Source: Cyanidioschyzon merolae (lineage: Eukaryota). Taken from it: a DNA stretch of 64,000 nucleotides. Below are positions 8,282 through 64,000 of this stretch, piece by piece. The notes under the pieces were generated by a model. It ran no database searches and was not told the origin of the DNA. It saw nothing but the letters and a program-made list of their open reading frames with translations. The stretch lies in NCBI GenBank assembly GCA_000091205.1, contig AP006488.2. One strand, given 5' to 3'. The translations under genes were made by a program, and so were the position numbers. Positions within the stretch are counted from its first letter, which is position 1. Each line of letters begins with the position of its first letter.

Positions 8282-9196
8282 TCAGCCACGCTTTTCGCGG
8301 AAGAGGTTGCTTTCGGCGACACATCCCGGGAAAATCGCCACAGAGGTCACCCCGTCGCGGCCGTATCGATCACTGAGCGCCTTCATTGTCAACAAGTTCT
8401 CGGCTTTGGCGTCTTTGAAAGCTTTTGTGGGCTCAAACGGGCCACTTTCTACCATGTCCGTCGTCTGCGGATCAAGCCCCGCGGCTAGGCCAGATATATC
8501 CCCGAGACGAGCCTGCGGGGGGATCTTTCCCGGCAGCGAATTCGGCGAGTGGGTCTGAGTCGTCAGAAACACAATGTGCCTGCGCGATATTTTCATCTTC
8601 GGCAACAGCTCCCGACAGAGAAGCAAATGGCTCAGATGGCAAACCTGCATAGTTTCCTCGATGCCGTCCACCCTGAAACGCGGTTTCTTGTCCCGCGGAT
8701 GCCATATTGTGGCATTGCAGATCAGGGTATCCAGGTGATCGACGCGCGCCACACTTGACAGCTCTCTTACAAACTTCAACACAGAGGCGAAATCAGCCAT
8801 ATCACAATGCAGCACTGTATAGGCGTCCTTTGGAAGGTTTACGCTATTCGCTGCGCGTTCCGCCAGGTCGACGTCACGACTTGCCATGACGATGTGCCCG
8901 TTGCCCTTGTTGATCAGAGCGCGAGCTGCATACAGACCGACCCCAGAGGACGCGCCAGTGATCACGGCGATCTGCGACTGTTTCGGGCCCATACGAAGAT
9001 GCAGCGCGTGGTGCCGGCGCGCTACAGGCGAGCGCTGCACCGCCAAGGGAAGCGGATGCTGACAGTGGTGACAATGTCCAGCTGCGAAGCACCCATCACG
9101 TGCGGTACGTAGCGGGAACGGTGCTCGAGTTGCAGCGCGCGCGCGAACAATGTGTCTTTCCTGGTACAACGGGACAAAAACGAAAAGAGCTTGCAT
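8282..9196 (-). CDS. Light-dependent protochlorophyllide oxidoreductase (POR)-like short-chain dehydrogenase whose catalytic Tyr is replaced by Phe
   Basis: The ORF encodes 304 aa. It has the SDR Rossmann motif 'ITGASSGVG'. Blocks align closely to LPOR: 'YTVLHCDMADFASV', 'LICNATIWHPRDKKPRFRVDGIEETMQVCHLSHLLL', and the POR-specific loop 'GKIPPQARLGDISGLAAGLDPQ...'. The tail 'LLTMKALSDRYGRDGVTSVAIFPGCVAESNLFREK' also matches. The YxxxK motif reads 'FKDAK' where POR has 'YKDSK'. A 68-aa N-terminal extension may be a targeting peptide, or the start is the internal 'MGPKQSQ'. Confidence 0.7.
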   Translation of the reverse strand: MQALFVFVPLYQERHIVRARAATRAPFPLRTARDGCFAAGHCHHCQHPLPLAVQRSPVARRHHALHLRMGPKQSQIAVITGASSGVGLYAARALINKGNGHIVMASRDVDLAERAANSVNLPKDAYTVLHCDMADFASVLKFVRELSSVARVDHLDTLICNATIWHPRDKKPRFRVDGIEETMQVCHLSHLLLCRELLPKMKISRRHIVFLTTQTHSPNSLPGKIPPQARLGDISGLAAGLDPQTTDMVESGPFEPTKAFKDAKAENLLTMKALSDRYGRDGVTSVAIFPGCVAESNLFREKRG

Positions 9197-9579
9197 TTTC
9201 TTGGATTAGATTTCCTCTGGTGCAAAGCTGCTGAACGCGCCACCAACTAGAGACGTTCGCTCAAGCATGCGTATCCAGTCAAAAACCTCTTTTGCGTAGC
9301 TGCAAGAGTGATCGCCCGTCAATGGTCCAGAGTCTGACCCATATCTCCCGTAGACTGCATAGCGTTGAGCACATCTAGCACAAGTGCTCAATGTCTTTCT
9401 GAGAAACTAGGCAAAACTCCTATGCTTCCCATCAACAACCTCATCAGCAGTTAGTGCCAAGGGTTCCGCAGTGCTGCGCTCAGATATCTAAACGACCGTT
9501 CACGAACGTCGACGTGGCTCTCCGACGAATACCGTAGAGGAGGTATAAGGGAATATCCTCCGGTGGTATGTTATTTTGG

Positions 9580-9685
9580 AAGCGTCTGCACGTCAGTTGG
9601 AGACGTCATGTTTAGGGCGGGTCACTCGCCACTACCGTGCACCGCGGGCAGCAGCGTTTTTCTTTTCAAAAGCATTTTTTGTCGG
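9580..9685 (+). mobile_element. Solo 3'-terminal fragment of the Fanzor/TnpB-like element family (conserved right-end module only)
   Basis: 'cgtctgcacgtcagttggagacgtcatgtttagggcgggtcactcgccactaccgtgcaccgcggg...gcgtttttcttttcaaaagc' matches the conserved 3' ends of the copies at 13140, 22060, 28270 and 32620. No upstream ORF is present. Confidence 0.5.
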
Positions 9686-10665
9686 CTGTGTCTCTTCCGG
9701 GCTCGATGTATGGGTTAGTCTCCTGAAACTAATCTTATAGAGTAGATCAGAATTCAGTATGCTTTTTTTGGCGGGTTCCTCGATCGTTCCAGGTGAGATG
9801 CGTTGGTCAAGCGCTGTGCTACGTATGAACGCTCTATGTATGCTATGCCTCTACCAAGATCACAGGATCCGGGAGAGTAGCGGGCACCATAACTTGGACA
9901 ACGACGATAGCATGGAAATGACTTGAACTGCCATCAGTTCCAGAACATGACGCAGGATAGAAGCACAATTCAGGTCAGTTCCTTATTCCAGCGTCCGTGC
10001 CGCATGCATAACAAGCACCGGGATTAAACGTATATCCGTGTTCAGCAATCCTACCGTGCCTTGTTTGTTTACGATCAATACAACTAACGAAACTCTTCAA
10101 GGCTAGAGTGATGCGTACCTTATCCACACAAGTGTAAGCCGCAGAGAACGCTACGCTTTTGATAGAAGCATCACGGGGTATCTCGCCAGGCCCCAACATC
10201 CCCTTGTACGTCAGGTCGGTACGGCGATGGGCGGTAGCGTCAGCACCACCGCCAGAGCCTATGCCAAGAGATCATTCTACGTGAGTTTCCAATCTACGAT
10301 ACTTTATTCCAGCTGCAGTGCGGTGCGAATACGCATATGCCAAGGCGGTGTCGGACACGTGTCCTTCATGGATCGGTGCAGCGTCTCGCGCGGTGCACGC
10401 ATCGCGCTCAGGGAGCACGCCTCGGAGATCAGGTAGTCAACTGACACGACGCGCATGCCGCCGTTGAAGGGAAACGCGATCCTAGTAACGAGCGTGTTGT
10501 TCTAACAGAAAAAGTTGGATTTCCGTTGGAGTCGAAGCAAAGTACAATTTTTCAGTTCATTTTTGTTTCAGCCCTCAAACAAGTCTAGTCAAGTGCTTTC
10601 TTGCAATACATAATAGAAGGGTTCGAAGCTGGTTCTTTTTCAAAAATACCTAAAAAAGAGGAGCT

Positions 10666-13166
10666 ATGAAAAAGCAAGTCCACGATCCTGAAGCGCCATT
10701 GTCGCCGGCTGCCAGAAAAACAAATACAGTGCCGAGTCCCGACGAAGAGCAAAAGAAAAAGAAGCAAAGGGGGAGGCCCTATGTCGATCGCGGCAAGAAA
10801 GACGACTGTACGACGAGATAGTGTTGAACGCCTGACTTCTTAAACATATCAAGGATCCCTACAGGGAAAAGTTGCGAGACGCTATCGAAAACCGTGTCGA
10901 CTCGTACTCCAAGAGTCTTTTCAAGGCTTCGTCAGGACTGATGCATTTGGCGAGGGAGATGTATCGCGACGTGACGGACATGGCAACCATCGAGATTCCG
11001 GACGAGTTCTTCGACAAGACCTTTATTCGTCACCTGATGCATGGTACAGCGGGAACGTGGAGGGAAAACGTGCTAGTGCATGTTCTCCACGAAAACTTCG
11101 CGGAATTCCGCTTCGAGGGTGCTCGGTACAGCGGTGACTCGCATATTTACACATACGGGGCAATGAAGTTCATCACGAACCTGAAGAACCATTTGACAGA
11201 GAACCTCGAATGTTTCATGATACGCACCGCGTTTGCACTCTACCCGGGCATCTCTCGCAAGGGGATATGGTCGATTATCAATGGCATCACGAACGATCGC
11301 AAGCATGAAGGTGAGGTCGAATTCGTCGGCAAGAAGACGTCAAAAGGGAGCACGAATGAAGCTTCTGCAACCCGTGCGGCTATACAAGAGCACCGTGCAG
11401 TCTTGGGGCTGGTGAATCCAACAGACAAGATATCAAAGTTGGAGAAAGATAAGGAAAGATACTATCGCCTCTTCCTGCGGCATTTTGTGTTTCTGGACCG
11501 AGAGCTCGAACGCAAAGTGGAGATGAAGCTGAGTGAAGAGACAAATGAAGAGTGGGAAAGACGGAAGGCTTTCCTAATGGGGAAGCGCTTCGACGTGGTT
11601 CCGTTGTGCAACATCAAGGCACATTTTGTGACTATCGACTCCGCGGTCCTTTACGGCATCATAAAGGAGATCAGTGCGGAGTTCAATATTCGTAGGGAGC
11701 ACTTCACCGGCGAAAACCAGGAGACGTACTGGAAGAAGATCTTCGGTTTCAAACGTCTCAAAACGAGCAAGCAAAAGGTATTCGCTGGGATGATTGAAAC
11801 CGATGGAGTAAACGTGTGTGTACACTATCGGCGGCTGAAGCAAGATCGTCCAGTCCCACTCCCCGCTGCGCCCTCGATGAAGCATGAAGATGAGAATGAG
11901 TCGGATCCTGCCACGCAGGAGGTAGAGGATACTGATCTTGTCGTTGGCGTGACGAACGATGAAGATGAGCAGGAGGCTGGTCCTGCGACGCAGGAGGTGG
12001 AGGATAACGAGCTTGCCGTTGACGCAGCGGAGCATGAAGAAAACCAAGAGGCGGGTCCTGCGACGCAGGCGGCGGAGGATAACGACTTTATCGTTGACGT
12101 GACGAAGGATGATCATGGGAAGGAAGCGGATCCTGTGATGCAGGAGGTGCATGATGACGCCTTTATGGTTGGCGCGGCGAAGCATGAAGAAAACAAGAAG
12201 GTGGGCCCTGCGACCCAGAAAGTGCAGGATAAGGACTTTGTCGTTGGCGCGGACCCTCGGAATACGAATATCATTACCATCGCAGCACCGAAGCGTGCGG
12301 AAGATGGTACTGATGGTAACTTACGTCAGAAAGACATGCGTCTTTTGAGGTTCACGAGAGAGAGATACTATCGAGAATCGGGAATCATGAATGCGAGGAA
12401 ACAATTCGAGACTTGGAAGTCAGGAATGAAAGATCACCTGGAAGCTTCGAGCTAGGTGACGAGCCGAGGAGCGCACTTTGAAGCTTTTCGGAAAGTCATG
12501 GAAGGTCGCATGACGCACTGGGATACGCTGTGGAAGGAGTATACCAAGCCCCGGTGGGCTCGTTTCCGAATGAATTTGTATTGTGGGAAGCAGCGGGCGG
12601 TGGCGAATTTTTTCAATCAGTTGAATGCCTTGATGGACGATAACAGTCAGAGGCTCGTAGTAGCGTATGGGGCAGGGCGCTGGAACACTCAAAAAGGAAC
12701 TTCGCCAGCTCCAACGACGAGGGTGTACAAGGAGTGCGCACGTCGTTTCGTTACAATACGGGTAGACGAGTTCCGAACGTCCTATACTCACCATGAGCTG
12801 GGTTGTACACTTCAGAGGGTGAAGATGGAAAAGTACCAGAAGAGCCCTGAGGAAATAGCAAAGTACGGACCGCTGACGGAAGAGCAAATGGAAAGGAGGG
12901 CGAAAGTTCGTGGACTACTCGCATTAGTAAGTACAACCAGTGATGGCAAGAAACGGATGGATTTCGTGAACCGAGAGTTTAATGCCGCAATCAATATAAG
13001 GAGATTGGCGGTGCTAGAGAAAAGACCTCCAGAGTGGACAAGAGAGAACTTTATTGGACAATCACTCAAAGTCGATTTATATGAGAAAGAATTGGAATCA
13101 GTAGTAGGTGACCGGTCCAAAAAGGCGGCGAGGCGTCTCCACGTCAGTTGGGGACGTTTTGTCTAG
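10666..13166 (+). pseudogene. TnpB/Fanzor-like nuclease ORF of copy 1, disrupted: frameshift and TGA near the N-terminus and an in-frame TAG at 12453..12455
   Basis: Two adjacent ORFs (10872..12455 and 12456..13166) lie in the same frame and are separated only by a TAG. The sibling copy has GAG at that position. The N-terminal exon-like ATG at 10666 is out of frame with the main ORF, and a TGA lies in the continuing frame. The RuvC-III 'NAAINI' motif is intact. Confidence 0.6.
11898..12257 (+). repeat. In-frame tandem array (5 x about 69-72 bp) duplicating the acidic '[14 protein letters not shown]' segment that ends in the RuvC-I motif
   Basis: The protein repeats are '[25 protein letters not shown]', '[25 protein letters not shown]', '[25 protein letters not shown]', '[26 protein letters not shown]' and '[19 protein letters not shown]'. 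Copies 3 and 5 carry a single unit. Confidence 0.7.
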
Positions 13167-14246
13167 GGCGCGGTTTTCCCGCCACTACTGTACACCGTTG
13201 GCGTCGTTCGACTTTCGAGCGGCGTTTGGTGTGGCCGTGCGCGGGAAGACGTCCATCATTCCATCTCCTTCCGAGTCTCAAAGCCCATGCTTCTTCTCGG
13301 ATATACTGGTCGTTTCGTATACTCTATCGAGTGACCGTGCATGCCTTGCCGCATCCGCTCCAGTAGTTTAAACGCTTGTGCGGGGTGTACAAAGTAGGTA
13401 TGGCGCACGATACAACGTACGCAACGACCAGCATATCAGAGAGGAATCACGAGGAATGCAACGATAAGGCAGGATGCATCACGATAGACGCTTTCCCGAA
13501 AGACAATATCCATCTACCCCGCAATCTGGGATCCATGGTCCATGGAAACGTGCTGCTACTGGAAAGAAAAACGAACGGGTGTGCGCGGCTGCCGTCTGTT
13601 CAACGTAGTTTCGTATTTCGTTCTTTTCTAGGTGGTGTAACGGAACTGTCTGCGGAAAATGACAGAGGAGTCCGCGGTGGAAGCTCGGCGTGTATCCTGC
13701 GAGGATTCCGAGCCCGAGGGATCGCCTTCGGCAGCCGCGCGGTCAGAGCAGGATACCGAGACGCCCGTCAGCACGAACGCCACAGGCACGCGACTCAACT
13801 GGAACACGCAGGCACCTGCAGTGACGAACGACGGCTGGCAAACAGCAGCGAGCGTATGCTCTAGTTCCGGTTCTGCGCTTGGTGAAGCGTTCACTCCAGA
13901 CGCTGCGCCTTCGCACGTAGGTACTGGAGCCGCAGCTCGTAGTGTTATGGCGACTGCCTCGGTTGAGAACAGTGTTCACTCCTTATCTGAGTCACCAATA
14001 AGCTGGAAAACACGCTTGAATGACCTTTAGGAGCGTCTCCTTCCCTGGATTCCCGAGCGAATGGCTTCCTTTTTCTACCGTCAGGCAACGCGCTGGCTGC
14101 CGACTCTCGTGCAGCGACTTCGATCAGCCTACGCCAAATCGCTTGAACCCATGGACGCTGTCGTTCATCTCTACAGGGGCATTGTTCCGACTTTTGATCA
14201 TCTTCCCGCAGAGGGCCGGGCGCCAACACAGATTCTCGCCGACCTG

Positions 14247-14477
14247 GATCGGGTGGAGCATATCTCGAGTCGATGCGCCCAGTGGTATCGCAAAGCCATT
14301 CTCTCAATCGGTACTGCGTCGGCACAGGCGGTACAGGCGACATTCTTGGCGCTCACGCAAGGCACCGCGCATGATGGTGTGTGGGGACCGACTAGAATCA
14401 CCGAGCTGAAGAATGGGTAACAGAATTCGAAGGCTGTTGGAGCGATGGACGGTTTCCCGATCGCTGACCTCAAGCGC
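14247..14477 (+). repeat. Dispersed direct repeat, copy a (231 bp); it forms the 3' end of a 119-aa ORF (14061..14420)
   Basis: Near-identical to 18724..18954 ('gggtggagcatatctcgagtcga...ccgagctgaagaatgggtaacagaattcgaaggctgttggagcgatggacggtttcccgatcgctgacctcaagcgc'). The shared peptide is 'RVEHISSR.AQWYRKAIL.IG.AS.QAVQATFLALT.GTAHD.VWG.TRITELKNG*'. Confidence 0.7.
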
Positions 14478-14884
14478 TCCAGTTTTGATTCCATGTCAAC
14501 GTATTCGGTCTGTCGACCAAGAAAACTAGGCGACGCTGTCCAGTTACATACATATAAATTCATTAATATCCATATAAATTCCATATCTCTGTTTGCAATC
14601 AGGGACGTCGAGACTTTCCGCTGCCATGTTCGGGAGAAATGTCCGCTTTCAGCAGCCGAGATAACGAGATCGCTAGATGATTTTTGCAACGTGGCCCTGT
14701 TCCCAACCGCAGGTTTTTTGAAGTCGGATCACTACTGGAGCGCCGCAGCCGCCGGCGTTGCAGAACACTGACGCGCGCTTCGTTGAATGCTCGTTGACCA
14801 CGTCCACTGATACACGAACCTGAATACAAGCTTCGATACGATACATACTGAGCGGCTTACGAGTCATAACTTCATACCTCCAAA

Positions 14885-15560
14885 ACATGTCTACAACCCC
14901 TACTCGTGACGATAAGGATATTGTGGGAAAACGCTACGGTCTAGCTTGCCTGTCCTATCGTAAGCTACCACCTGTCGAAGGCGAGTACCCTGAAGGTGCT
15001 GCGCGGCTGGTGCTCTGTTGCATCAAGATCACCACCAAGGGAGACTCGCGTGCGTTTACCAAGTACCCATACACGGTGGATAATGGGTGGGTATGTTGTT
15101 GTGATTGGTGCGCTGCTTAAGAAATTTAGGCGGGGAGAGCACTTATACAACTATAGAAAAATCAAGTGCGTTCGGGGCTCTAGTGCGTTTCCACTTCAGA
15201 GCTTCTTTCTTCGAACACCGGCGCTACTGCTGCCGACGAGCCGGACGTTTTCCTCTGGAACGCGAAGCTTGAGCGGACTCCTCGAGGACTGCAGTGTCGT
15301 GGACTGGAAGTGATGATGTGCTCGTGTAGGAGTGGTATCCAACGCAGCGAAGTTCTTCGTTCAGCCGCGTCGCTCTAGCCTCATGCTATGCGGTGCGATT
15401 GTGACACTGCTTGACTGTGCCCTGCCCCAAGCGCTGAAGATTGCGTTCCCGCTCTGCACAGTTGGGGGCAGGACACCTGCACGAACTTGTTCCGCCCTCA
15501 CCGAAGGTCGTTTGCGTACTGGAAATGGAAAGTGAAGGATAGCTAGTGTCTGTATGCGGC
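14885..15560 (+). repeat. Inverted repeat pair, copy 1 (about 670 bp), carrying a conserved 77-aa Cys-rich small ORF (14887..15120)
   Basis: ORFs 14887..15120, 14996..15313 and 15332..15535 each have near-identical counterparts on the opposite strand at 22619..22852, 22426..22659 and 22204..22407. Confidence 0.7.
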
Positions 15561-16552
15561 AGACTACGTGTGACAGTTAAGCTGCATTCAGGAGGCCAGG
15601 GAGAGCCGCAAACATAAAAAAGACACAATGAGAAACAGACTGAAACGATTTGTCCTAAAACAACTGTCCTAAACCTTCCACACAGATCCCACATAAGAAT
15701 TCCGTTTTTCGGGATACACATTAAATGTGCCAAACAAAGCGGAAGGTTTCGGGTAACGTGAGAAGGAGCCCCACGACCGGGTCTTTGACAAATACGAACG
15801 TAGGGGTGGAACCAGTAGCACCATATGATGGTGAGATATTTGAGCAGACACCTGTCTGTCTTGAATCAACTCTGCAGGCACTGGCGCGAACCCTGGATCT
15901 AACCTCGAACTCGAGCTCAGGTTTACCTCCTACTTTAGTTTTTTCTTCAACTTTGGGGAAGTCTCGGCGGAGGTTTTGGAAGACGGCAGGCAGGTTGTTC
16001 GCGGTCGAAGGTGGAATAAGCGACTTACCCGCCTACATGTTTGGGGAGCGGATCCGAAGCCGTTGAAAGGGTCGTTAGTAGACTATATCCCGAGTGGTCG
16101 AGGGTTGCATCACGCGCCACGCAGCGTAACGGCCGCTTTCGAATCGACCCCGCCAGCTCGACTCCTAACACTGCGCTACCACTGCGGCAAGCACTCAATG
16201 AACGACTGGAGTGTAGAAGGCACTGGTGGCATGTGCGCTCACACACTCCGTGGCGGGTGCGTCTAAATCGACGGCACAACTCTGGAGCACCGCAACGCTA
16301 TTCCTAATCAATGACGAGCTACCACTCGATAGGTTTCGCATCGTGGAACATTTGCGGGACAGCCGCGAGACTGGACGATGCAAGGCACTTCCGGGAGCGC
16401 TGAGACGCCCATAGCCTGGCGTTGCGGGAGACACTACGCTCAGAGAACACAAATGCCTATAATAGTCTGCACATCCCAGGCTACAACAACGTTTGAACCT
16501 ACATACGCAGGCCCTACGGACAAGTTAACTTATTTATTTATGCACAGGTGGA

Positions 16553-18473: not shown

Positions 18474-18723
18474 CAGGAAGGATTTCGGAGCCGTGAATCG
18501 GATGCGCACATGGGACCAGAGTTATGTTGACCTACCCACTGGAGGGTACCGGGCAGAGGCCAGCGCCTCGAATCGAAAACATACTCTACACAAGTTTGCG
18601 AAAGTCAGACTCGGGCTTTAGGATGTATCCCAGCAGCCACTGCTCTCCAAATCCTCGTATCGCGAACGCAAGCCAAAATATGCACACTGGCCGAGCGCCA
18701 ACCGCTTGCCAAACACGACCTTG

Positions 18724-18954
18724 CATCGGGTGGAGCATATCTCGAGTCGACGCGCCCAGTGGTATCGCAAAGCCATTCTCACAATCGGTAGTGCGTCGGT
18801 ACAGGCGGTACAGGCAACATTCTTGGCGCTCACGCCAGGCACCGCGCATGATGTTGTGTGGGGAACGACTAGAATCACCGAGCTGAAGAATGGGTAACAG
18901 AATTCGAAGGCTGTTGGAGCGATGGACGGTTTCCCGATCGCTGACCTCAAGCGC
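18724..18954 (+). repeat. Dispersed direct repeat, copy b (231 bp; 3' fragment of the 14061..14420 ORF)
   Basis: See 14247..14477. ORF 18706..18897 ends with the same 'ITELKNG*'. Confidence 0.7.
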
Positions 18955-19517: not shown

Positions 19518-20978
19518 TCAGGCACCGCATGTGTTCGTGATCTCCACGCGACCGTGAAAGCTTGAGCAGACTACGCGCGATTGATGCAAACTTGTCGCCG
19601 CAATTTCTGGCAACGCTTCAGGGTCCCCACGTGCGCCCGTCGCTGCAGTTATGGTCGCCAGCTCGGCGCCTGACTGCACAGTGCCCGGTAGATTTCTCTT
19701 CTGGCAAATTTGCTCACGCCATAACACCAGCATTCGTCGGATATCTTCCAGATCGCTCATGGTGGCGGAGGCGCGCTCGCCGCGAATGAAAGCACGAACA
19801 AGCTCGAGATGCTTGCGTTCGGAGGCCGCCTCCAGCTCGCCTCCTTCCGGTGTATCTTGAGGACATCGCTCAGGCATGCCTTCCATGATCCAGCGACGCA
19901 GCAGCATCAATTCATATCGATCCAGCCACTCTGCTAGTGATTTCTGCGATACGGATGTATCCGAAGCGGTTCCCCGGTCCGGCGACTGCGATACTATAAC
20001 CGGGATATGGCGCAGCTTCTCAAATTCGGACCATCGCTCATCGTAGACCGCGTTTGAGACAATGCTCTTGTCTTCCTTCAGGCTGGATATCATTTGCTCG
20101 TGATATTCCAGTCCGAGAAATTCATATTGCCAGACGAATTTAGCTCCATTACGCCCATTCCTGTCACAGATTTTCTTCGAATCTTGTGGAGCGATACAGA
20201 GAACCTCCGCAAGGCCAGCGATGCCTATTCGCGACCCCCGCTTGATCGGCGCGCGCCCACAAGCCTCGGCTGTTGTGCGGCCCGTGCATGCGAAGAATAA
20301 CTGCACCAGATACAGTGCAGCTATAAAACCTCCAACGAATAGGCAGTAGACACCAACAAGAAGCGCCAAAATAGCCGGAAAAGGGCGATGCACCAACGCT
20401 GCCCTGAAACCGCTGGTGCCGCTGCCGAGCTGTTCACTTTCGAAGCCAATCTCAAGGAAACAAACAACAACGCCATACACGAGCAGTAGCAGGATTGAGA
20501 TGAGATACCCCAGAAAGTAGGGGTGGTTGCGCGCCCCCACGCACTGGCCAAGCCAGACGCAGTGGTGGTCCAGGCGAACACAGCAGCGCTCGCATACATA
20601 GCAATGCTTGGTTCGTGGTGGCCGGAACACCCGGCAGTTTTCACAGTACTTCAGGGAGAACTCCTCTCCTGTCTTCCTGTCACGAACTCGAATGTTCATT
20701 GGAAGACCCGTGGAGGCCTCCCGGTACAGCAGCTCTTTTTCGTGTTCAGCGCTGTAAGGGACCCAGCCCGGGTCAGTAAAGGCGGCCACGAGGAAGCATG
20801 TCCACGCGCAAACAGCCAAAAAGATCCCTACGGCAAGCACAGACCAGCCGCGCGGCGCCTTGTCCGCACAAAAATATGGTGCTACACCAGCAAAGAAGAC
20901 GATCTGCGGTACCGCAGTGGCAAAAGCAGCGACTACAAACAGCCGTCGCTTCGAAGGCACGAGACTTGACAGAGGCAT
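19518..20978 (-). CDS. DHHC-type zinc-finger protein S-acyl (palmitoyl) transferase
   Basis: The 486-aa intact ORF contains 'CENCRVFRPPRTKHCYVCERCCVRLDHHCVWLGQCVGARNHPYF' (DHHC-CRD). Hydrophobic TM segments flank the domain on both sides. Confidence 0.75.
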   Translation of the reverse strand: MPLSSLVPSKRRLFVVAAFATAVPQIVFFAGVAPYFCADKAPRGWSVLAVGIFLAVCAWTCFLVAAFTDPGWVPYSAEHEKELLYREASTGLPMNIRVRDRKTGEEFSLKYCENCRVFRPPRTKHCYVCERCCVRLDHHCVWLGQCVGARNHPYFLGYLISILLLLVYGVVVCFLEIGFESEQLGSGTSGFRAALVHRPFPAILALLVGVYCLFVGGFIAALYLVQLFFACTGRTTAEACGRAPIKRGSRIGIAGLAEVLCIAPQDSKKICDRNGRNGAKFVWQYEFLGLEYHEQMISSLKEDKSIVSNAVYDERWSEFEKLRHIPVIVSQSPDRGTASDTSVSQKSLAEWLDRYELMLLRRWIMEGMPERCPQDTPEGGELEAASERKHLELVRAFIRGERASATMSDLEDIRRMLVLWREQICQKRNLPGTVQSGAELATITAATGARGDPEALPEIAATSLHQSRVVCSSFHGRVEITNTCGA

Positions 20979-21172
20979 CTCTCTAACAGAACTGGGAGCG
21001 TCTAGTCCACACGAGTGGAGAATTTAAACCTTTGAAGTAGTCTGCAGCGAACTACAGTACGACATTTGAAATAGATGAAGACTTGAGTGTGAGACGCCTG
21101 AAAGGCGAGCAGGGCAGAGCGCTCGCAGTCAAACAGAACGTTGAGATGCAAAGCGTGGTGCGCAGGTAAAGG

Positions 21173-22165
21173 TTGTCGTTGGCGCGGACCCGGAAACTCA
21201 AATATCGTTACCGTCGCAGTACCCAAGCGTGTGGCAGATGGTACTAACGGCACCTTACATCAGACAGACATGTGTCTTTTGAGGTTCTCGAGAGCAAGAT
21301 ACGATCGAGAATCCGGTATGATCAATGCAAGGAAGAAAATTGAGACATGGAATGCAGGAATGAAGGATCACCTGCAAGCTTTGAGCGAGGTGAGGAGCCG
21401 AGGAGCGGACTTTACAGATTTTCGGGAATTCATGGAAGTTCGCGTTGCTCATTGGGACGCGCTGTGGGAGGATTATACAAAGCCCAGGTGGGCTCGTTTG
21501 CGAATGAATCTGTACTGTGGGAAGCAGCGGGCGTTCGCCAACTTTTTCAATCAGGTGGGCGCCCTCAAGGAGATTGAAAGTCAGAGGCTCGTCGTAGCGT
21601 ACGGAGCAACGCGCTGGAAGACCCAAAAACGGGACTATGCCAGCTCCAACGACAAGAACGTACAAGGAGTGTGCACGGCGTTTCGCTGCGATACCTGCAG
21701 ATGAGTTTCGAACATCGTATACACACCACGAGCTGGGATTTACACTTCAGAGAGTCGAGATGGAAACGTGCCAACGAAGCCATGAGGAAATAGCAAACTA
21801 CGGACCGCTGATGGGAGAGCAAATGGATAAGAGAGCGAAAGTTCGTGGACTACTTGCGCTGGTGAGCGCAACCAAAGATGACAAGAAACGTATGGTATTA
21901 GTGAACCGAGACTTTAACGCCGCTACGAATGTAAAGAGATGTACGGTGACAGATAGAAGACCTCCAGAGTCGACAAGAGAGAACTTTGTTAGACAATCAC
22001 TCAAAGTGGAACTATATGAGAAACAGTTGGAAGCAGTTGTAGGTGACCGGTCCAAAAGGCTGGGAGGCGTCTGCACGTCAGCTGGGGATTTCTTGTCTAG
22101 GGCGGGCTTCTCGCCACTACTGTACACCGCTGGCGACAACGTTTTGCTTTTGAAAGGCGTTTTGT
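21173..22165 (+). mobile_element. Fanzor/TnpB-like element copy 2 (family A; 5'-truncated, begins at the RuvC-I 'VVGADP' segment; frameshifted)
   Basis: Homology begins at 'gttgtcgttggcgcggaccc'. ORFs 21141..21704 and 21637..22353 lie in different frames, with the same +1 insertion as copies 3 and 4. The 'VNRDFNAATNVKR' RuvC-III-like motif and the conserved 3' end are present. Confidence 0.7.
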
Positions 22166-22194
22166 TTCAGGGGTTTTTGCAGTATACAGACACT

Positions 22195-22860
22195 ATCTAT
22201 CCTTTACTTTCCATTTCCAGTACGCAAACGACCTTCGGTGAGGGCGAAACAAGTTCGTGCAGGTGTCCTGCCCCCAACTGTGCAGAGCGGGAACGCAATC
22301 TTCAGCGCTTGGCGCGGGGCACAGTCAAGCAGTGTCACAATCGCACCGCATAGCATGAGGCTAGAGCGACGCCGCTGAACGAAGAACTTCGCTGCGTTGG
22401 ATACCACTCCTATACGAGCACATCATCACTTCCAGTCCACGACACTGCAGTCCTCGAGGAGTCCGCTCAAGCTTCGCGTTCCAGAGGAAACCGTCCGGCT
22501 CGTCGGCAGCAGTAGCGCCGGTGTTCGAAGAAAGAAGCTCTGAAGTGGAAACGCACTAGAGCCCCGAACGCACTTGATTTTTCTATAGTTGTATAAGTGC
22601 TCTCCCCGCCCAAATTTCTTAAGCAGCGCAGCACTCACAACAACATATGCAGCCATCATCTAACGTGTACGGATACTTGATAAAGGCGCGTGGGTCACCT
22701 TTGGTCGTGATCTTGACACAACAGAGCGCCACTCGCCCAGCACCCTCAGGAAACTCACCCTCAACGGGTGGGAGTTCACGATAAGATAGGCAAGTTAGAC
22801 CAGTACGTTTTCCCACAATATCCTTATCGGTTGGCGTTTGCTTTTCGGGCATCTTTTAAA
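22195..22860 (-). repeat. Inverted repeat pair, copy 2 (reverse complement of 14885..15560), abutting the 3' end of element copy 2
   Basis: See 14885..15560. The 77-aa ORF 22619..22852 (-) reads 'MPEKQTPTDKDIVGKRTGLTCLSYRELPPVEGEFPEGAGRVALCCVKITTKGDPRAFIKYPYTLDDGCICCCECCAA', against 'MSTTPTRDDKDIVGKRYGLACLSYRKLPPVEGEYPEGAARLVLCCIKITTKGDSRAFTKYPYTVDNGWVCCCDWCAA' in copy 1. Confidence 0.7.
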
Positions 22861-25800: not shown

Positions 25801-25929
25801 TCGTGAATCGTGAGTCTCTGTTCTTTGTTCTAAATAACGCTGTCGAGTTGTGCACCTCCATATTTGAAAGGCATGAAATACAATGCGCTTTTCACAGTGG
25901 AAGAGAAACGTAGTCCTGACCATTCGTTG

Positions 25930-31642: not shown

Positions 31643-31726
31643 TAGGTTGGCCGAATTCCAGGTCGTTTGACAGACTCCAGAAACAGAAAGAATTGAGATT
31701 GTAATCTCCGGACGTGAACGTGCTGC

Positions 31727-42749: not shown

Positions 42750-42769
42750 CCTCGGAGACACGCACATTG

Positions 42770-52286: not shown

Positions 52287-53390
52287 TTATGCCGCAGAAG
52301 ACGGAGGTTTCGCTACCGGCGACGATGCGGGCTGAGGTGCAGTCACGGAGACTGCTTGCAAACAGCTGAGAATCTTCTCGGGATTCGAGAGCTCTTTCTC
52401 TGTTTGCAGACACGGCATGGAGACGTCATCAAGAGCGTACGGACCGACGCGAAGTCGAACCAGACTTGTCATGTGCGCGTGCGTGCCGAGAGCTTTCCCC
52501 AGGTCGTCAATGTAGGTGCGGATATAGGTTCCCCCCGAGCAGTCCACGAACAAGGTGCCTGTGCCCTGTCTCGCGTCGAATGCCTCGCAGCGTGCTTCGA
52601 AGACGTAGACCGTTCGAGAAGGCAATTCACCGATCGCATCGGCTTTACCGGCCCGAGCGAGGTCATACAGCCGTTCACCTTGCACGCGAACTGCGGAAAA
52701 GGCTGGTACTCGCTGCACGATTGCACCGTGGAATGCCTCCGACTGCAGGAGGCGATTCAGCGCCTCAACGTCATATTCACGGAGATGCTCAAAACTCGAG
52801 CGCGCTATCACTTCACCAGTGCAATCTTGAGTATCCGTCGCTGAGCCGAGTTTGAACGTTGCCCGGTACTGCTTGCGTCCGCGTTGGAACTCCCAAAGCT
52901 GCCGCGTGTACTGCGCGCCTACCGCTAGAACGAGTACACCACTCGCGAGCGGGTCCAGCGTTCCACCGTGTCCGACGCGAAGTCGAAAACGACGTGAGCG
53001 CCGACCTGCACCAGACCCAGATGACGACTTGCCGACACCCGCAGGAGGACTAGCAGCGGTGGGCGCCTCGTGTTGTCGTAGGTACTTTTCCAGGGTTGCG
53101 CGTACCTTGTTCACGACGTCGAACGACGTCCAGTTCTGAGGTTTATTGACGATCAAGATGCCACTGGGTTCTTTCGGCGAACGAGCTGCGCAGCGCAGGT
53201 CACTAACAGCACGAGAGCGCTTCCGGGAGCCAGGCATGGACCCAAGCGCTGGCCCAAGTGCAAAACCAGAAACACCGCTGCCACCGACGGCGGAGGCAGC
53301 AAAAGCAGTCGTCGAAACAGCAGCAGCAGCGCCAGGAGCAGTGGTTCGCAGGGGACGCACCAGGCTCAGAAACGCCAACTGAGTTCTCAT
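52287..53390 (-). CDS. truB: tRNA pseudouridine(55) synthase TruB/Pus4-like with an N-terminal extension (possible organellar targeting)
   Basis: 'GILIVNKPQNWTSFDVVNKVR', 'RVGHGGTLDPLASGVLVLAVGAQYT' (catalytic Asp in the GH.GTLDP block), and 'YRATFKLGSATDTQDCTGEV'. Confidence 0.75.
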   Translation of the reverse strand: MRTQLAFLSLVRPLRTTAPGAAAAVSTTAFAASAVGGSGVSGFALGPALGSMPGSRKRSRAVSDLRCAARSPKEPSGILIVNKPQNWTSFDVVNKVRATLEKYLRQHEAPTAASPPAGVGKSSSGSGAGRRSRRFRLRVGHGGTLDPLASGVLVLAVGAQYTRQLWEFQRGRKQYRATFKLGSATDTQDCTGEVIARSSFEHLREYDVEALNRLLQSEAFHGAIVQRVPAFSAVRVQGERLYDLARAGKADAIGELPSRTVYVFEARCEAFDARQGTGTLFVDCSGGTYIRTYIDDLGKALGTHAHMTSLVRLRVGPYALDDVSMPCLQTEKELSNPEKILSCLQAVSVTAPQPASSPVAKPPSSAA

Positions 53391-54269
53391 AGAAAGTACA
53401 AAGAGTTGATTGGTAACTGCTATGCCGCTCCAAACTCACTCAGGTGCGTTATGGGGTACACTACGTAAACGAGTCGGTATGCGAGCGAACAACAGCGCGA
53501 GCGACTCAGTTTTCTCGATGCCAAAACGTTTAGATTGACCAAAGATCCCAGATTGCGGGATGCGTATTGATGATCGAAAAAGCGTCCACCATGCTGCAGC
53601 ACCCTACCTCCAAGTTCTATTTTTCGCACTTCCTTTCAGATATACTGGTTATTTCTTAGGTTCTGATTTGCACCTAACATGCCATGAGCACCCGTCCTGG
53701 CGCATATACCGCTGGTGCAGATGCATCACGGAGACGGAAAAGCTTTTCCAGCACCACCACTGAGGGCGTCGAATCGAGGAACGCTTCACCTGGTACGGAT
53801 TCGCAGTACATAGTCATGCTGAAGGCCTGCGAGCAGCGCAGACAGACCTACAGCCTGCGGCAGCGAGAAGCGGCATGCCAGGTGTCCACCGCGAACAGGG
53901 CGACGCTCAGAGGCGTCATACCCGCTGCGAGCTCCTGAATGAACTGCGTTGCGGACAAACTGCTCACATCTCACTACAGCATCCGTCAATTGCGGGGGCG
54001 GGAGGCGGGTATGCAGCGCTAGCCCGGGAGACTCGTTCAGCTCGCGGGACCTTCCGCTAGTACAGTGAACTTTTGACAATATGGAAACTTGTTCCCCATG
54101 TAACGTTTCTTGTGGTGGTGAAAAGAGATTCTAGTCTCGTTGCTATCTAGTGGTTAGTTTCTGTTCTTCTCTCTATAGAGCGGTCCGTACGTGCTCTCCG
54201 ATATCAGGAAGGTACGAAACGCGACGCGCATCTCGCCGTTACACATCAACGCTATCCTGATGATTAGCG

Positions 54270-56740
54270 TGTTTCTCTATCGTACAAGATGTGTTTCGGT
54301 TGAAGCCATAGCAAATTATCGTCTTTCGATTCAGCTGTGCTCCAGCCCTAGCATTAGCGTTTTCAAGTGCTTTTTCGTGGTTTATAGCAGAAGCGTTCGT
54401 AGCGGGTTCGTTTTCAAAAATAAAAAAAGAAAAGCCATGGGGAAGGAAATGGAGGATCCGGTAGGCTCGGCGCCGCCGATCGCCGAAAACAAAAACTAAA
54501 AACACTGCCAAGCCCAGAGGATCAAGACAAGGCGAATATGAAGAAATGGGAGGCTCGACCTCAAAAGCGACACAAAAGGCGACAGTACGACGAGAATGTA
54601 GTGAAAGCATTTCTTCTACTCAAGACCAAGAATCCCTACAAGCAGGAGTTGCGAAAGGCCATCAGAAACCGTGTCGCGTCGTACTCCATCAGTATCATTA
54701 AGGCTTCTTCAGGACTGATGCATAAGGTGAGCGAGACGTATCGCGACATCACGGACAGCAGAACAGTCGAGGTTCCGGGAGAATTCTTCAGCGAGGCCTT
54801 CATCAAGCACCTGCTACGTGGCACAGGGGAAACTTCGAGGAGAAATGAGCGAGTGTATGCCCTCCAGGAAAATTATATCGTCTAACGCTTGAACGGTACG
54901 ATATAAAGGTGAGCTCGAATTTTTACATCTACGGGGCGGTGAAGTACACCACGAATCTGAAGAAACATTTGAGCATGAACCTAAAACGCTTCACGAAACG
55001 CTGCATCATATTTAAATCTACGGGGCGATGAAGTACACCACGAATATGAGGAACCATTTGACCATGAACCTCAAACGCATCATGAAACGCTCCATCTTTG
55101 CGCTGTACCCGGACCTCTCACACAAAGGGAAATGGGCCACCATGAGTAGCATCACGAACGATCGACAGCATGAACAGGAGATCGAATTCGCCGGTGAGGA
55201 GGCATCGCCCAGTACCATGAATGAAGCTCCTGTGGTCCGTGCGGCTGTCCAAGAGCACCGCGGAGGTCTGGGGCTGGCCAATCCAGAAGAAAAGGTATCA
55301 GAGATGGAAAAAGATGCTATCCCCTGAACCTGCGGTATTTCGTGTTTTTGGAACGAAGAACTCGAACGCAAGGCGCATATGGATCTGGGCATGGAGGTAT
55401 GTTGAGAGTCTTTGAAACGGATGGCTGGGCTTCTGGAGAAGCGCTTCAACGTCGTTCCGTTATGAAAGATCATGTCGTACTGTGTCACAATCGATTCCAG
55501 AGTCCTTCATGGCATCATGAGGAAGATTTGTTCGTAGTTCGATTCAGGCAGGGAGAGGTTCACCGGCGAAACCGGGAGACTTGTCGGAAGAATATCTTTG
55601 ATTTCAAATGTCTTAAAAGGAGCACAAAAAATGTATTCAGGGGTACGATTGGGAGCGATGGACTACCCATACGTTTGCACTATCGGCGCTTGATGGCGGA
55701 TCGTACGACGCAGGAGGTGCAGAAGAACGACTTTGTCGTTGACGTGGATTCTGCGAAATCGAATGTCAAGACCACCGCAGCACCCAAGTGTGCGCAAGAT
55801 GGTATCGACGGCAACTTATGCCAGAAAGGCATGTGTCTTATAACGTTCGCGAGAGCGAGACACTAACGAGAATCAGGAATCATGAACATGAGGAAAAAAA
55901 GTGAGACTTCGAATACAGATGTGAAGAAGCACCTGGAAGTGATCAGCCAGGCCACTTGCCATGGAGCGGACTTGCAAGCCTCTGTAGCGTTCATGAAAAT
56001 TCGAGCTGCTCATAACGAGTTGCTGTGGGAAAAGTACTCAATGACCCGGCGAGTTCGCCAGCGTCTCAACCTGCACTACGGAAAGCAGCACGCACTTGCC
56101 AATTTCCTCCATGAGGTGAGCGCCCTCACGGAGTACATGAGTCTAAGCCTCCTAGCAGCATACGTAGCATGGCGCTTGGCCTTCCAAAAAAGGGATCATA
56201 CGCTCTCCATCGACGAGAGCGTACCAGGCGTGCGCACAGCGCGTTGTCACAATACCGATGGATGAGTTCCGAACGTCATGAATACAGCATGAGCTGGGAA
56301 GTACACTTCAGAGGGTCAAGACGGAATAGTGCCAGCGGAGCCCTGAGGATATTGAAAAAGCATGGAGCGCCGACAGAACAGGAAATGGCACGGAGGGCAA
56401 AAGTTCGAGGAATCCTTGCATTAGTGAGTGCAAGCGACAGCAAGAAACTGATGGAGTTTGCGAACCGGGACTTTAACGCCGCTATCAATATCAGACGATG
56501 TGCCGTGCCTGAGACGAGCGCCGAAGAGCTGAGACGATCCAACTTCATGGGCAGCCCCTCAAGGCGGATTTGTCGAAGAAGAAGTCGAAACCGATAGTAG
56601 GTGGCCGGTCGCAATAAGCCGGGAGGCGTCTGCACGTGGGCGGCCAGACATATGGTCTATGGCGAGCGGAGCCTAGCGCGCTGCTCGCCACCACCGTACA
56701 CCGCGTGCAAACCTGCGCCGCTCGCAAGGCGTTCGTTGTT
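54270..56740 (+). mobile_element. Fanzor/TnpB-like element copy 5 (divergent family C; several frameshifts and stops)
   Basis: The 5' end 'agcgtgtttctcta...' and the N-terminal region 'MKKWEARPQKRHKRRQYDENVVKAFLLLKTKNPYKQELRKAIRNRVASYS...SSGLMH' are colinear with copies 1 and 3. The segment 'FVVDVDSAKSN' occupies the RuvC-I-like position. 'FANRDFNAAINIRRCA' is RuvC-III. The related 3' end is '...cgtctgcacgtggg...gccaccaccgtacaccgcg'. Confidence 0.55.
54927..55100 (+). repeat. Internal tandem duplication (2 x about 88 bp) within element copy 5
   Basis: 'atctacggggcggtgaagtacaccacgaatctgaagaaacatttgagcatgaacctaaaacgcttcacgaaacgc...' is repeated immediately as 'atctacggggcgatgaagtacaccacgaatatgaggaaccatttgaccatgaacctcaaacgcatcatgaaacgc...'. 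Confidence 0.5.
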
Positions 56741-57568: not shown

Positions 57569-58444
57569 CTATCGAGCGCCCGCGTTTCCTGAGCCGAGTC
57601 TGAAGCCCTTCAATCGACGCCAATCACGTCGATTCATCTCGCTCAAGATCTCTCGCATCAGTTTATAAAACCTGGAATCGTGCTCTGCGTGCTCATTGTG
57701 CGCAAGCTCGTGTGCCAGTACTTCCCGAATAGCGTCATATCGGCGAAATCCGGCCAAATCATCGGTTCGCAATCGCAGATAAATCGCAGCACCGCGACCT
57801 TGATTCAGTCCAAGGACGCAAACCGGATCGACGCCGACTCGACCGTCAGGAGCCATTTCACAGAGTGCACCCACTCGCCAGTGCCATTTCTGCATAACGT
57901 AATTAACACCGGGATCTCTAGCCAGCTGTTCTAACAAAGAATGGGCCTGATGAGCATCGGCAAAGTTCCCGAGCACCCGAAGCTCGGAGAAGCCCCAACG
58001 CGAGCAGCTCCCAACCGGTGCGCGCGGATACAGCTCGCCATCGAACGGCCGAGCCGGACGCCGTCCAGGCCCGTCAAAATCCGCCGGCCGCACAAGCGGG
58101 TCTGGTCGAGCGAGTTGAACGCGCTCCAGTGCAAACGAAGCCGTGCCGATGACGCGAAGCGGTTGCTGCTTCTGAACAGCCGCGAGGAGCGCGTCCCCAG
58201 TGCGAAGAACACGTCCTTGTGCGATCAGTTTCACAGTTTCTCTGGCAAAGTTCCAAGCTGAAGCCACCTGCTCCCGCAACTCCTCGTAAAGAGCCTCTGG
58301 ATCGGCCGCAGACACCCGCAACACGCGGTCGTTCACCCGCACCTCCAGCGACGACGCAGCGTCTGTGCAGGGTGCCCTCAGCTCTGGACTGTCCCCGGAA
58401 GCTCCGGCACCATTCGTCCCTATCTGTGCCACAGCAGAGGTCAT
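57569..58444 (-). CDS. WLM (Wss1-like) zinc metalloprotease with an N-terminal ubiquitin-like region
   Basis: The WLM core includes 'LGLNQGRGAAIYLRLRTDDLAGFRRYDAIREVLAHELAHNEHAEHDSRFYKLMREI', which contains the HExxH motif 'HELAH'. The N-terminal 'LRVSAADPEALYEELREQVASAWNFARETVKLIAQGRVL' region is ubiquitin-like. Confidence 0.65.
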   Translation of the reverse strand: MTSAVAQIGTNGAGASGDSPELRAPCTDAASSLEVRVNDRVLRVSAADPEALYEELREQVASAWNFARETVKLIAQGRVLRTGDALLAAVQKQQPLRVIGTASFALERVQLARPDPLVRPADFDGPGRRPARPFDGELYPRAPVGSCSRWGFSELRVLGNFADAHQAHSLLEQLARDPGVNYVMQKWHWRVGALCEMAPDGRVGVDPVCVLGLNQGRGAAIYLRLRTDDLAGFRRYDAIREVLAHELAHNEHAEHDSRFYKLMREILSEMNRRDWRRLKGFRLGSGNAGAR

Positions 58445-58742: not shown

Positions 58743-58744
58743 CA

Positions 58745-58873: not shown

Positions 58874-58887
58874 CGACCTGAAATCAT

Positions 58888-61446: not shown

Positions 61447-62440
61447 GCTAGCATTTGAGCGAGATTGCCGCTGAATCATCGCCGTGCCCTGGCCCTGTGG
61501 ATATCGCATGATGCCTCGTTTACAGCGGTTCAGTCATGATACTGGGTGGTGATTATCGCCGCCGGAATACCTCAGGACTAGACCGCGGATCGTTGGAGGC
61601 TACGCTCGCGTCCATCGCGTGTACCATGCGCTGCAAAAGTGGTGCTTGTCTGCAGCTCCACAAAGAGCACATGATCGCGTGCTGTGCTGCGAGCACCACG
61701 GCGCCGGCCTCTGTCGGCAAACGCGCTCAAAGGCGTACTCGCGACAAGCATGAATTCAGCAGGAATATTGGCGCTGGTTGAGGCACTACGACTGACTATC
61801 GAGAGACCAATCTCAGCAACCGCAGCATGCGTCGATCACTGGGGCGCAGCTTAAACTCCAGCATCGATGCGGCCGCGTCAGAGCCAGACCTGCAGACTAG
61901 TGGACAGAGCGCAGCATGCCTCATTCTGGATTTCGCAGAAGTACCCGCCAGAGACGCTTCTCATGGTAGCCAGTGGCGGATCGCGTCTATTTCGGTACCG
62001 GGAATTCGGACGGATTCCGCGTCCAGTCGACCGGGGACGGTTCACGCTCTCCACTCGGACGTCAACGCGTTTCAGTTTGGTGATGAAGGTGCTGCATTCA
62101 TCGACCGACCAGTCTGCATGACGATTCGACGAACATCGGGCGGAACCTTTGATGCATACCTCTGGAGCATGATTCGCAGAGGTGTACTTTTTTGCAGGTC
62201 GTCGAGGTGGAGCGTGTGGCGAGAGCCACATATTTGAGCGACCTCGCACCGGGCGTGATCCAAGACACCATTCGGCTGATGCTCAAGCGTGCCTCGCGTA
62301 CCCGACATGTCGTTGCTCACCTTCGTGATGCTGGTGTGCTTCTATGGGTAGCGTACTTGCGCTCGTTTGCGAAGCGTAGCGGACCTTGAGGACAAATGGC
62401 ACGCTCCAGCAGCCATGCGCTTGCATAGGTCATGCATTCA

Positions 62441-63994
62441 TCATGTGATGCTTTCCAAAGCAGCACCTAGGGCGTGGTCATCAAACACGTCGTGGAAATC
62501 CCAGAACTGCACATTCCAGCGGGGGTGGTAGCGCCGACACCAGCGCTCAAAACCCTGGATATATGCGGGTCGCAGGTGCGCATCCAAAGAGTTCCGAAAC
62601 GCCACCATGGACTCCTCGATGATCGAGGGATCCATGAGAATGCTCCCCGACAACGGATCCAGCATCACCTTGACCGGAACATGCTCATAACCCCAGAAAG
62701 GCAGTTTCGTCCCGATATCGCCGACCGCTGCCCATCGGAATGAAAACGGCACATGTCGCTGGAACGCTGCAGCGAAAGCGCGATTCCCGACTCGAGGCGA
62801 CCCAAAAGTCACACACATTACCAGATCCGATGACAGACGCAACGACTGTGAATTCTCAAAACACGTCATATCGAGGGCAGCGATGCTTGCCAGGGCCCCG
62901 CCGAGAGAGTGACCTCAAAAGATCACCGGTTTGTGGTTGCAAGATGCACTATCCAAGGAGTTCATCGCACTACACGGTTGCGCTTCGCTCGCATCTGCTG
63001 CTGCTGCTGCTGCTGCTGTAGCAGTTTCGCTTCGACACCGCGCTGCGGTCTCTGTACCCGCTAAGCTCAGCTGCTGTTGCTGCTGCCCGTGTTCACAACC
63101 GCCACGAATATCCGCACTGGACACCTCGGGAAAGCGGTTCGATGGTTGCACGCGCCTATCCAGGCTGGTAGCGACACCACAAGTGGTATCGCCGCAGGTG
63201 CTGCTCAAGGGCGCGCAAGCCGCATCCACTGCGGTTGGTGCAGTGCTCGAGGGCTCTGCAACAAGCGGTTTCAGCGTCTCCATTAACTCTTCATGCACGG
63301 ATAAATAGGCGTGCAAAAATCCACCGTGCACCATTGTAGGCACTCGTCGCCCTATGAGATACGAAAAATCCTCACCAGCCTGAGCGCGAAAATCACCAAA
63401 GCGCAGGGAACGGATCCCGCGTACGCTCAGCATATACTGCCACCATCGTCGATGTGCAAAACGGCCTCCAGGATCTAAACCGAGTTCCTGTGACAGGGCA
63501 TCATCAAGACCGCGCTCTATATGCGAATCGTCCTTGGCAAAGGCCTCCACTGATGCCTGGTGCTTCCTAGTCGAATCTATTTCGCGCTTGCTGTGTGTTG
63601 CGGGCGGTATTTGCGAACAAGTCGCAGCCGAGGTGCCGCTACGCCCGGCAGCCAAGGCAGTGGTGCTTACAGCATTCGTCGTACGAGGCATTCGAGTTGT
63701 ACCGTCGACCGTCGCTTTCGCCGGTGACTCCCGCAACGACCCGCGTTGACCGTGTTTGCTGCAGGCGCTCAAGCGCCACGTATCCTGTATTTGCGGACAT
63801 TCACGTGCATGCAGGTGCTCCTTGAGAGGAACCCGTCGGACATTCATATCTGTGCGTAAATTTCTGGTGCTTTTGGTACCGCGAAAGCTCACCACAATCC
63901 TATCCGCCAAGTCAATGACGAGCACATGTACATCTGTAACGGCGCTGGAGATATGCCGCACGACTCGTGCTTGCAGGGGGTCCATTTCGCCCAC
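62441..63994 (-). pseudogene. Class-3 (fungal-type) lipase family gene with an in-frame TGA inside the nucleophile elbow; its 5' end runs off the window
   Basis: Upstream of the stop the protein reads 'IVVSFRGTKSTRNLRTDM' and 'VHGGFLHAYL', ending 'CNHKPVIF' followed by TGA at 62912..62914. The same frame continues 'GHSLGGALASIAALD-MTCFENSQ...VTFGSPRVGNRAFAAAF'. The GHSLGG nucleophile elbow sits immediately after the stop. The first codon at 63994 is GTG and the frame is open to the window end. Confidence 0.6.
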
Positions 63995-64000
63995 ACCATA

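Follow-up and report, generated by a model that had tools for sequence, protein, structure and literature searches.

The left end of chromosome 6 of Cyanidioschyzon merolae 10D is probably a composite of four unrelated layers, with its gene graveyard confined to ~10 kb

The DNA analyzed here (hereafter the window) is the first 64 kb at the left end of chromosome 6 (6L) of Cyanidioschyzon merolae 10D. Inward from the telomere it holds a Kelch+Hint gene, a truncated Kelch+trefoil (K+TFF) gene, a copy of the gene for light-dependent protochlorophyllide oxidoreductase (POR), a series of CMe-1A transposable elements interspersed with housekeeping genes, a gene for an atypical ARL1-like protein and, at the inner edge, a class-3 lipase gene with an in-frame TGA (Table 1). 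An initial annotation, made from the letters of the sequence, read all 64 kb as a subtelomeric "gene nursery or graveyard." That description stands for the outermost ~10 kb, with its dead POR copy and truncated K+TFF gene, and for the enrichment in transposable elements, but it does not extend to the ARL-like gene and fits the lipase gene only loosely; the graveyard is real, appears confined to ~10 kb and has already been published for 6L. The window as a whole is likely a composite chromosome end made up of four unrelated layers: a PH subtelomeric block, CMe-1A elements, an old syntenic block and a lipase null.

The window opens with three units of CCCCCCATT, the reverse complement of the published C. 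merolae telomere repeat AATGGGGGG (PMC1955436). Exact look-up of the open reading frames (ORFs) of the window returned 14 consecutively numbered 10D GenBank proteins, BAM79404-BAM79417, all of which map into it. The telomere unit together with these 14 chromosome 6 proteins therefore identifies the window as 6L, and what had been called a telomere-like repeat as a real telomere at which the contig ends. Chromosome 6 is 536,163 bp long, and chromosome ends and gaps were closed by targeted cloning in the 2007 genome paper (Nozaki et al. 2007, PMC1955436). According to the same source, eight types of homologous elements, of at most 20 kb each, adjoin the telomeres, and 6L is among the ends that carry a "PH" element, in which P denotes NADPH:protochlorophyllide oxidoreductase and H a hedgehog-like protein. 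Recent duplicates in Cyanidiophyceae have been traced in part to subtelomeric gene duplication (Cho et al. 2023, PMC9812998). Subtelomeres house the Kelch, trefoil and Hog families in Cyanidium, Cyanidiococcus and Cyanidioschyzon, and C. merolae has 17 Hog and 15 trefoil-like genes, mostly subtelomeric (2026 Plant Cell paper, PMC13353863).

The outermost ~10 kb of the window corresponds to the published PH type: it lies at the same end, directly adjoins the AATGGGGGG telomere and carries both the P gene, dead here, and the H gene, a Kelch+Hint ("Hog") gene that is intact and has a paralog of >90% identity, BAM81404, on the 852,727-bp chromosome. Between the two lies the K+TFF fragment, to which no protein accession has been given. 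Of its Kelch part it retains the last blade only (aligning to Hog residues 370-443), after which come a Pro/Thr linker and the trefoil domains; upstream of it no more Kelch-coding sequence was found. The N-truncated Kelch paralog that had been predicted within positions 8282-63994 is thus present and is the sole one in the window, but it lies outside that range. What distinguishes the 6L block from the published description is the inactivation itself, since neither the Tyr-to-Phe change and three stops of the POR copy nor the truncated K+TFF gene is mentioned in the relevant passages of PMC1955436, PMC9812998 and PMC13353863, and the word "pseudogene" is absent from their main texts. Possible PH copies elsewhere include the adjacently numbered BAM81403 (POR) and BAM81404 (Hog) on the 852,727-bp record, an adjacency that suggests another PH unit, as well as BAM79708 (POR) on the 584,452-bp chromosome and a wild contig end with POR (L028).

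The closest solved relatives of the POR copy are light-dependent POR proteins (E 7e-54). Its active-site motif reads KAFKDAK in place of KAYKDSK, the catalytic tyrosine being replaced by phenylalanine (Tyr260Phe; TTC at 8417-8419), as the initial annotation had noted. That annotation overlooked three in-frame stops, TGA at 8282-8284, TAA at 8138-8140 and TAG at 8060-8062 (codons 305, 353 and 379). A search for canonical paralogs elsewhere in the genome, proposed with the annotation, yielded two full-length proteins of 403 residues each, BAM79708 and BAM81403, on the 584,452- and 852,727-bp chromosomes, respectively. Both belong to a 90% cluster, whose full-length representative (P0246), like full-length wild relatives, retains KAYKDAK. 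Judged by the disabling lesions here and the intact paralogs elsewhere, the 6L POR is a pseudogene of a duplicated gene, so that duplication followed by decay is directly evident in this block. The same phenylalanine and the same three stops occur in two wild contigs (L026 and L027) that are 98.8% identical over 3.8 kb, and the pseudogene therefore predates the split of these strains. At the wild contig end L028, CMe-1A stands beside a POR copy that retains the tyrosine but has a different stop. With a copy killed by a different stop there, death of POR copies at chromosome ends is therefore a repeated event.

Self-comparison of the window revealed a repeat family of ~3 kb. The published CMe-1 protein consensus matched five copies and one remnant of it by tblastn (E down to 0), with element starts set by the 5' end of the CMe-1 DNA consensus. 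CMe-1A belongs to the Fanzor1 (TnpB-like) elements, has ~150 copies and a consensus of 3169 bp, and is the same as the WSV486-like repeat of Nozaki (Bao and Jurka 2013, PMC3627910), described earlier as a 3.2-kb interspersed repeat with a truncated WSV486-related ORF that is present in 253 copies and makes up ~5% of the genome (PMC1955436). The copies in the window resemble the published element in their match to its protein consensus (72-82% for copy A), in a length of ~3.1 kb, in having no terminal inverted repeats to report and in having all ORFs broken. The five disrupted element ORFs previously listed thus proved to be broken CMe-1A copies, and a sixth, highly decayed remnant was added to them; every copy in the window is disrupted. 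Including small fragments, CMe-1A accounts for 12.1 kb, or 18.9% of the window, compared with the reported genome share of ~5%, a local density about five times the genome average. At least five copies are present where ~1 would be expected from the copy numbers given in PMC1955436 (Poisson P ~0.003). The block is therefore rich in transposable elements, as had been claimed, being several-fold enriched, although the element responsible was already known. The window also departs from the published picture in that copies B, C and D are 95-98% alike, as against ~80% identity to the consensus genome-wide. These three have one frame shift in common, from which it follows that an already defective copy was propagated.

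Several further observations concern these elements and repeats. The Fanzor ORF of copy A contains a 75-bp coding tandem repeat of 4.9 units at 11879-12246, which multiplies an acidic segment found once in the published consensus protein. Copy D comes to within 35 bp of the annotated start codon (31642) of the phosphoenolpyruvate synthase (PEPS) gene, on its upstream side. At ~60258, CMe-1A is present in wild relatives (L014:3540-4514 and L023:2383-4232) and absent in 10D, an insertion polymorphism that suggests recent mobility; the metagenome contigs L006 and L007 break about 0.2-0.3 kb from this site. No profile match naming the element was obtained for the repeat ORFs in Pfam or NCBIfam or for the C-terminal part of copy A in PDB, and the element was identified through the published CMe-1 consensus alone. 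The sole TnpB/RuvC-type profile match of the element was to Cas12f1-like_TNB (E 0.2), and neither PDB nor NCBIfam gave matches. A decayed non-LTR retrotransposon considered at 16.5-18.5 kb was dropped, as no ORF in 13.3-19.5 kb had a Pfam match. An unclassified direct repeat (14240-14477 and 18716-18954) is 96% identical, and a 1-kb inverted repeat of 83% identity (14546-15561 and 22178-23205) brackets the DHHC gene.

The ARL-like gene is an intact ORF with a full Arf signature and an N-terminal Met-Gly, its nearest canonical relatives being ARL1 proteins (35-46% identity). It differs from ARL1 and other Arf-family GTPases in a Gly-rich N-terminal insert and in the loss of Lys, Gln and Asn that the initial annotation had reported, and all three substitutions were found. 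The P-loop reads GLDGAGATT, with Ala63 in place of the lysine of the G1 consensus GxxxxGK[ST]; switch II reads DLGGTD, with Thr104 in place of the catalytic glutamine of DxxGQ; and G4 reads TKQD, with Thr160 in place of the asparagine of NKxD. Three relatives were found to have orthologs: Cyanidiococcus yangmingshanensis, at 75% identity by BLASTP and 81% when aligned columns are counted; an uncultured relative, at 86-87%; and Cyanidium caldarium, at 64-67%. In all of those compared, Ala stands in place of the P-loop Lys and Thr in place of the catalytic Gln. The Asn-to-Thr change is limited to Cyanidioschyzon and Cyanidiococcus, Cyanidium having NKQD.

The gene had been taken for a relaxing duplicate, for which a comparative test of nonsynonymous (dN) against synonymous (dS) divergence was proposed. 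When that comparison was run on the ARL-like gene, it indicated strong purifying selection and no relaxed constraint: among eight block genes compared with two relatives, it ranks first in identity and has the smallest dN (0.09 and 0.11), below the values for PEPS, Grx, NDOR1, NMNAT and TruB. The dN/dS ratio (omega) is ~0.03-0.05 where dS can be estimated, a rough value given that intergeneric dS is saturated, the dN ranking being robust. With lesions common to three genera and the lowest dN of eight neighbors, the claim of a relaxing duplicate was not borne out. The protein is, on this comparative evidence, a conserved and constrained atypical Arf-like protein in an old block near the chromosome end, and probably a pseudo-GTPase or a locked-state Arl.

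Cyanidiococcus retains the order PEPS, CMF014C, ARL, CMF016C, Grx, NMNAT, NDOR1, DUF202, TruB at a distance of 8-28 kb from where a 1.04-Mb contig ends (L012), and the uncultured relative retains the same PEPS-to-TruB order at 4-25 kb from the contig end (L025). At a chromosome 2 end in Cyanidium (L013), the NDOR1, lipase, NMNAT, DUF6823, WLM and ARL-like genes are grouped together, with the ARL-like gene ~2 kb from a (AATGGGGGGG)n telomere run (L013:12140-12338). Judging from these arrangements, the block that begins at PEPS has kept its place close to a chromosome end in the different genera. The two ORFs into which PEPS falls in the Cyanidiococcus assembly GCA_013995675.1 (L012:2461-4861) probably reflect a frame shift or an error of assembly.

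The 3' two-thirds of a class-3 lipase gene lie inside the window, with no annotated protein. On the minus strand its translation reads ...KPVIF-TGA-GHSLGGALA, with the stop at 62915-62917, so that the TGA placed by the initial annotation in GHSLGG is present but stands directly before the motif, not inside it. The PF01764 Lipase_3 match (E 6e-16), with the GHSLGG nucleophile elbow, lies downstream of the stop, whereas the start of the domain lies upstream. In Cyanidium the ortholog is intact (1039 residues), lies in the same gene neighborhood and has a cysteine at the TGA site. Cysteine also occupies the site in an 894-residue relative (85% identity) and in two further homologs recovered by exhaustive HMMER search. 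The word-indexed homolog search, which missed the Cyanidium ortholog, gave no close match for 140 residues from upstream of the stop combined with the downstream part. Given the cysteine in the homologs, the change is therefore one of TGC or TGT to TGA in what is probably a single-copy ortholog. The gene had been counted among the paralogs of the window; it is instead the syntenic ortholog of the intact Cyanidium gene, and its TGA, at 63 kb from the telomere, is farther inward than the published end elements extend (at most 20 kb, PMC1955436).

Among wild contigs of close relatives (L014-L024), 3 of 10 have TGC at this site and 7 of 10 have TGA, with a second stop or a frame shift added in some of the latter. 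The frame is open on both sides of the TGA in 10D and in two wild TGA contigs. The 10D N-terminus was inferred from wild contigs of 98-99% identity. Omega is 0.34 when 10D (TGA) is set against a TGC version and 0.74 when two TGA versions are compared with each other, values that fit a recent loss of function; on the short C-terminal part alone, the counts were too small to use. The situation resembles that of polymorphic unitary pseudogenes in the single-base TGC-to-TGA change in a syntenic ortholog, in the coexistence of intact and null versions in wild relatives and in the extra lesions on some null versions, and differs from it in that the wild versions are only putative alleles at one locus. 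From such comparisons the lipase would be a unitary null allele of a single-copy ortholog rather than a paralog, to which a graveyard description applies only loosely.

The seven genes that had been described as intact (PEPS, NDOR1, TruB, NMNAT, Grx, WLM and DHHC) are all intact and correspond to annotated proteins. The satellites that had been reported exist as repeats but are small minisatellites of 2-6 units, one of them the coding repeat within copy A, and no RNA family was found anywhere in the window by Rfam at gathering thresholds. The DUF202 membrane-protein gene (48907-49857) encodes 316 residues in 10D, and an 85-residue fragment is called in many wild contigs (for example, L001:8407-8664 and L025:18696-18953), where the gene may be disrupted. 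In one metagenome contig (L010:426-3750), the DUF6823 gene (CMF025C) is found beside genes for ACBP and ribosomal protein L2 and not beside WLM, an arrangement that reflects either a rearrangement or a chimeric contig.

Table 1. Features of the 6L window, in order from the telomere, and the ARL-like orthologs of relatives
Feature	Position	Strand	Remarks
Telomere repeat (CCCCCCATT)3	1-27	.	reverse complement of AATGGGGGG
Kelch+Hint ("Hog," "similar to hedgehog protein," BAM79404)	3337-5520	-	intact; H gene of PH element
K+TFF gene fragment	6202-7638	-	N-truncated
POR	7985-9196	-	dead copy; P gene of PH element
CMe-1A copy A	10421-13230	+	5'-truncated; one in-frame stop at 12453-12455
DHHC palmitoyltransferase (BAM79405)	19518-20978	-	intact
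CMe-1A copy C	21162-22171	+	3' fragment, frame-shifted
CMe-1A copy B	25309-28371	+	near full length; two stops and a frame shift
Phosphoenolpyruvate synthase PEPS (BAM79406)	29243-31642	-	intact; outer edge of Cyanidiococcus-syntenic block
CMe-1A copy D	31677-32705	+	3' fragment, frame-shifted; 98% identical to 3' end of copy B
ARL1-like protein (BAM79408, CMF015C)	36423-37097	+	intact ORF; Arf domain PF00025, E 8e-46
Glutaredoxin Grx (BAM79410)	41301-41642	-	intact
NMNAT (BAM79411)	41997-42749	+	intact
Sixth CMe-1A remnant	43433-43971	-	highly decayed; 35-41% amino acid identity
NDOR1-type diflavin reductase (BAM79412)	46531-48258	-	intact
TruB (BAM79414)	52287-53390	-	intact
CMe-1A copy E	53516-56664	+	full length (3.15 kb), old; ~70% identical to other copies; many stops and frame shifts
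WLM protease (BAM79415)	57569-58444	-	intact
Class-3 lipase	62444-64000	-	3' two-thirds inside window; no annotated protein
ARL-like orthologs in relatives	L012:10001-10657; L013:10001-10645; L025:10001-10552		

A single regime of nursery or graveyard acting over all 64 kb, under which the POR-like, ARL-like, lipase and Kelch genes would be relaxing or neo-functionalizing duplicates, agrees with the real telomere at the start of the window, with the decay of the duplicated POR and K+TFF genes and with a transposable element content of ~19%. It also agrees with the distribution of H3K27me3, which is enriched at chromosome ends, marking 36 of 40, and is found on half of the repeats, including repeats of this kind (Mikulski et al. 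2017, PMC5405695). Such a regime is nevertheless unlikely, as the lesions of the ARL-like gene are common to several genera and that gene is the most constrained of its block, the lipase has an intact ortholog at the syntenic position in Cyanidium, the genes from PEPS inward are single-copy and stand in the same order as in relatives, and none of the published homologous end elements exceeds 20 kb (PMC1955436). As for sequencing or assembly errors in the reference genome as the source of the lesions, no support for them was found, and we give them almost no credence: the POR phenylalanine and all three stops recur in the independent metagenome contigs L026 and L027, the lipase TGA recurs in 7 contigs, the ARL substitutions recur too and so, judged by the same TruB-WLM spacing, does CMe-1A copy E. 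Four unrelated layers therefore remain the preferred account, and the points that weigh against it are these. The ratio of nonsynonymous to synonymous differences (pN/pS) between the POR pseudogene and a wild copy, calculated from only 16 differences (7 synonymous and 9 nonsynonymous), is 0.42 and so does not clearly indicate neutrality; the omega of the ARL-like gene carries the saturation of dS mentioned above; and the wild TGC and TGA lipase versions could be paralogous fragments rather than alleles, given that upstream of ~63018, a GCN-repeat (poly-Ala) stretch, wild contigs (L016-L022) show three contexts joining there, namely full-length lipase, a DOP1-like (DOP1_C) gene and unrelated sequence.

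For the lipase there is the further reading that its TGA is decoded as selenocysteine, or by read-through, and that the gene is functional. The TGA aligns with a Cys conserved in four homologs, no other stop interrupts the frame on either side in 10D or the two wild TGA contigs, and C. merolae is reported to possess an orphan selenocysteine machinery (tRNA-Sec, SBP2, EFsec, SecS and SPS2), no selenoprotein being known from it (PMC2375036). If this were true, the lipase would be the first selenoprotein candidate in C. merolae. However, no selenocysteine insertion sequence (SECIS) was found in the lipase 3' region by Rfam at E up to 10 or on inspection of all ATGA cores, a pattern test that is crude; the site, which adjoins the nucleophile of the lipase, has no redox role; PSTK is reported missing (PMC6627142); and omega between TGA versions is ~0.7. 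In addition, TGC and TGA coexist in wild sequences, and other TGA contigs have a second stop or a frame shift or are without the 5' part. Decoding of the TGA is thus highly improbable, and a null allele remains the preferred interpretation of the lipase.

A composite end of this kind could have been assembled as follows. The outermost layer, the telomere and PH element at ~0-10 kb, would be shaped by exchange between chromosome ends that spreads Kelch+Hog, Kelch+trefoil and POR copies. Redundant copies then decay, which at 6L has left POR dead, K+TFF truncated and Hog intact. From the cited papers we infer ectopic exchange among chromosome ends as the mechanism, with subsequent loss of redundant copies in H3K27me3-marked, repeat-rich chromatin. 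As a second layer, interspersed CMe-1A would accumulate in and beyond the PH block, all of its copies being defective. The third layer, from PEPS inward, is an old single-copy block, syntenic across Cyanidiales and kept close to the chromosome end, within which the "lesions" of the ARL1-like gene are characters fixed long ago in a GTPase-like protein that is under constraint and probably deficient in nucleotide handling. The fourth would be an independent and recent TGC-to-TGA loss of function in a single-copy lipase ortholog, with other disabling changes in wild relatives.

That duplicated end blocks spawn and lose copies within silenced repeats has already been published for 6L and for the lineage, and to this the present analysis adds little. 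It does argue for caution, in that what one sequence shows as "catalytic-site lesions" can be any of three things: a true pseudogene, as with POR; an ancient and conserved pseudo-enzyme, as the ARL-like protein probably is; or a null allele that segregates at a single-copy gene, as the lipase would be. Of possible interest to specialists are a Cyanidiales-conserved Arf-like protein without the P-loop lysine and catalytic glutamine, and a TGA/Cys pair in an organism whose selenocysteine machinery is unexplained.

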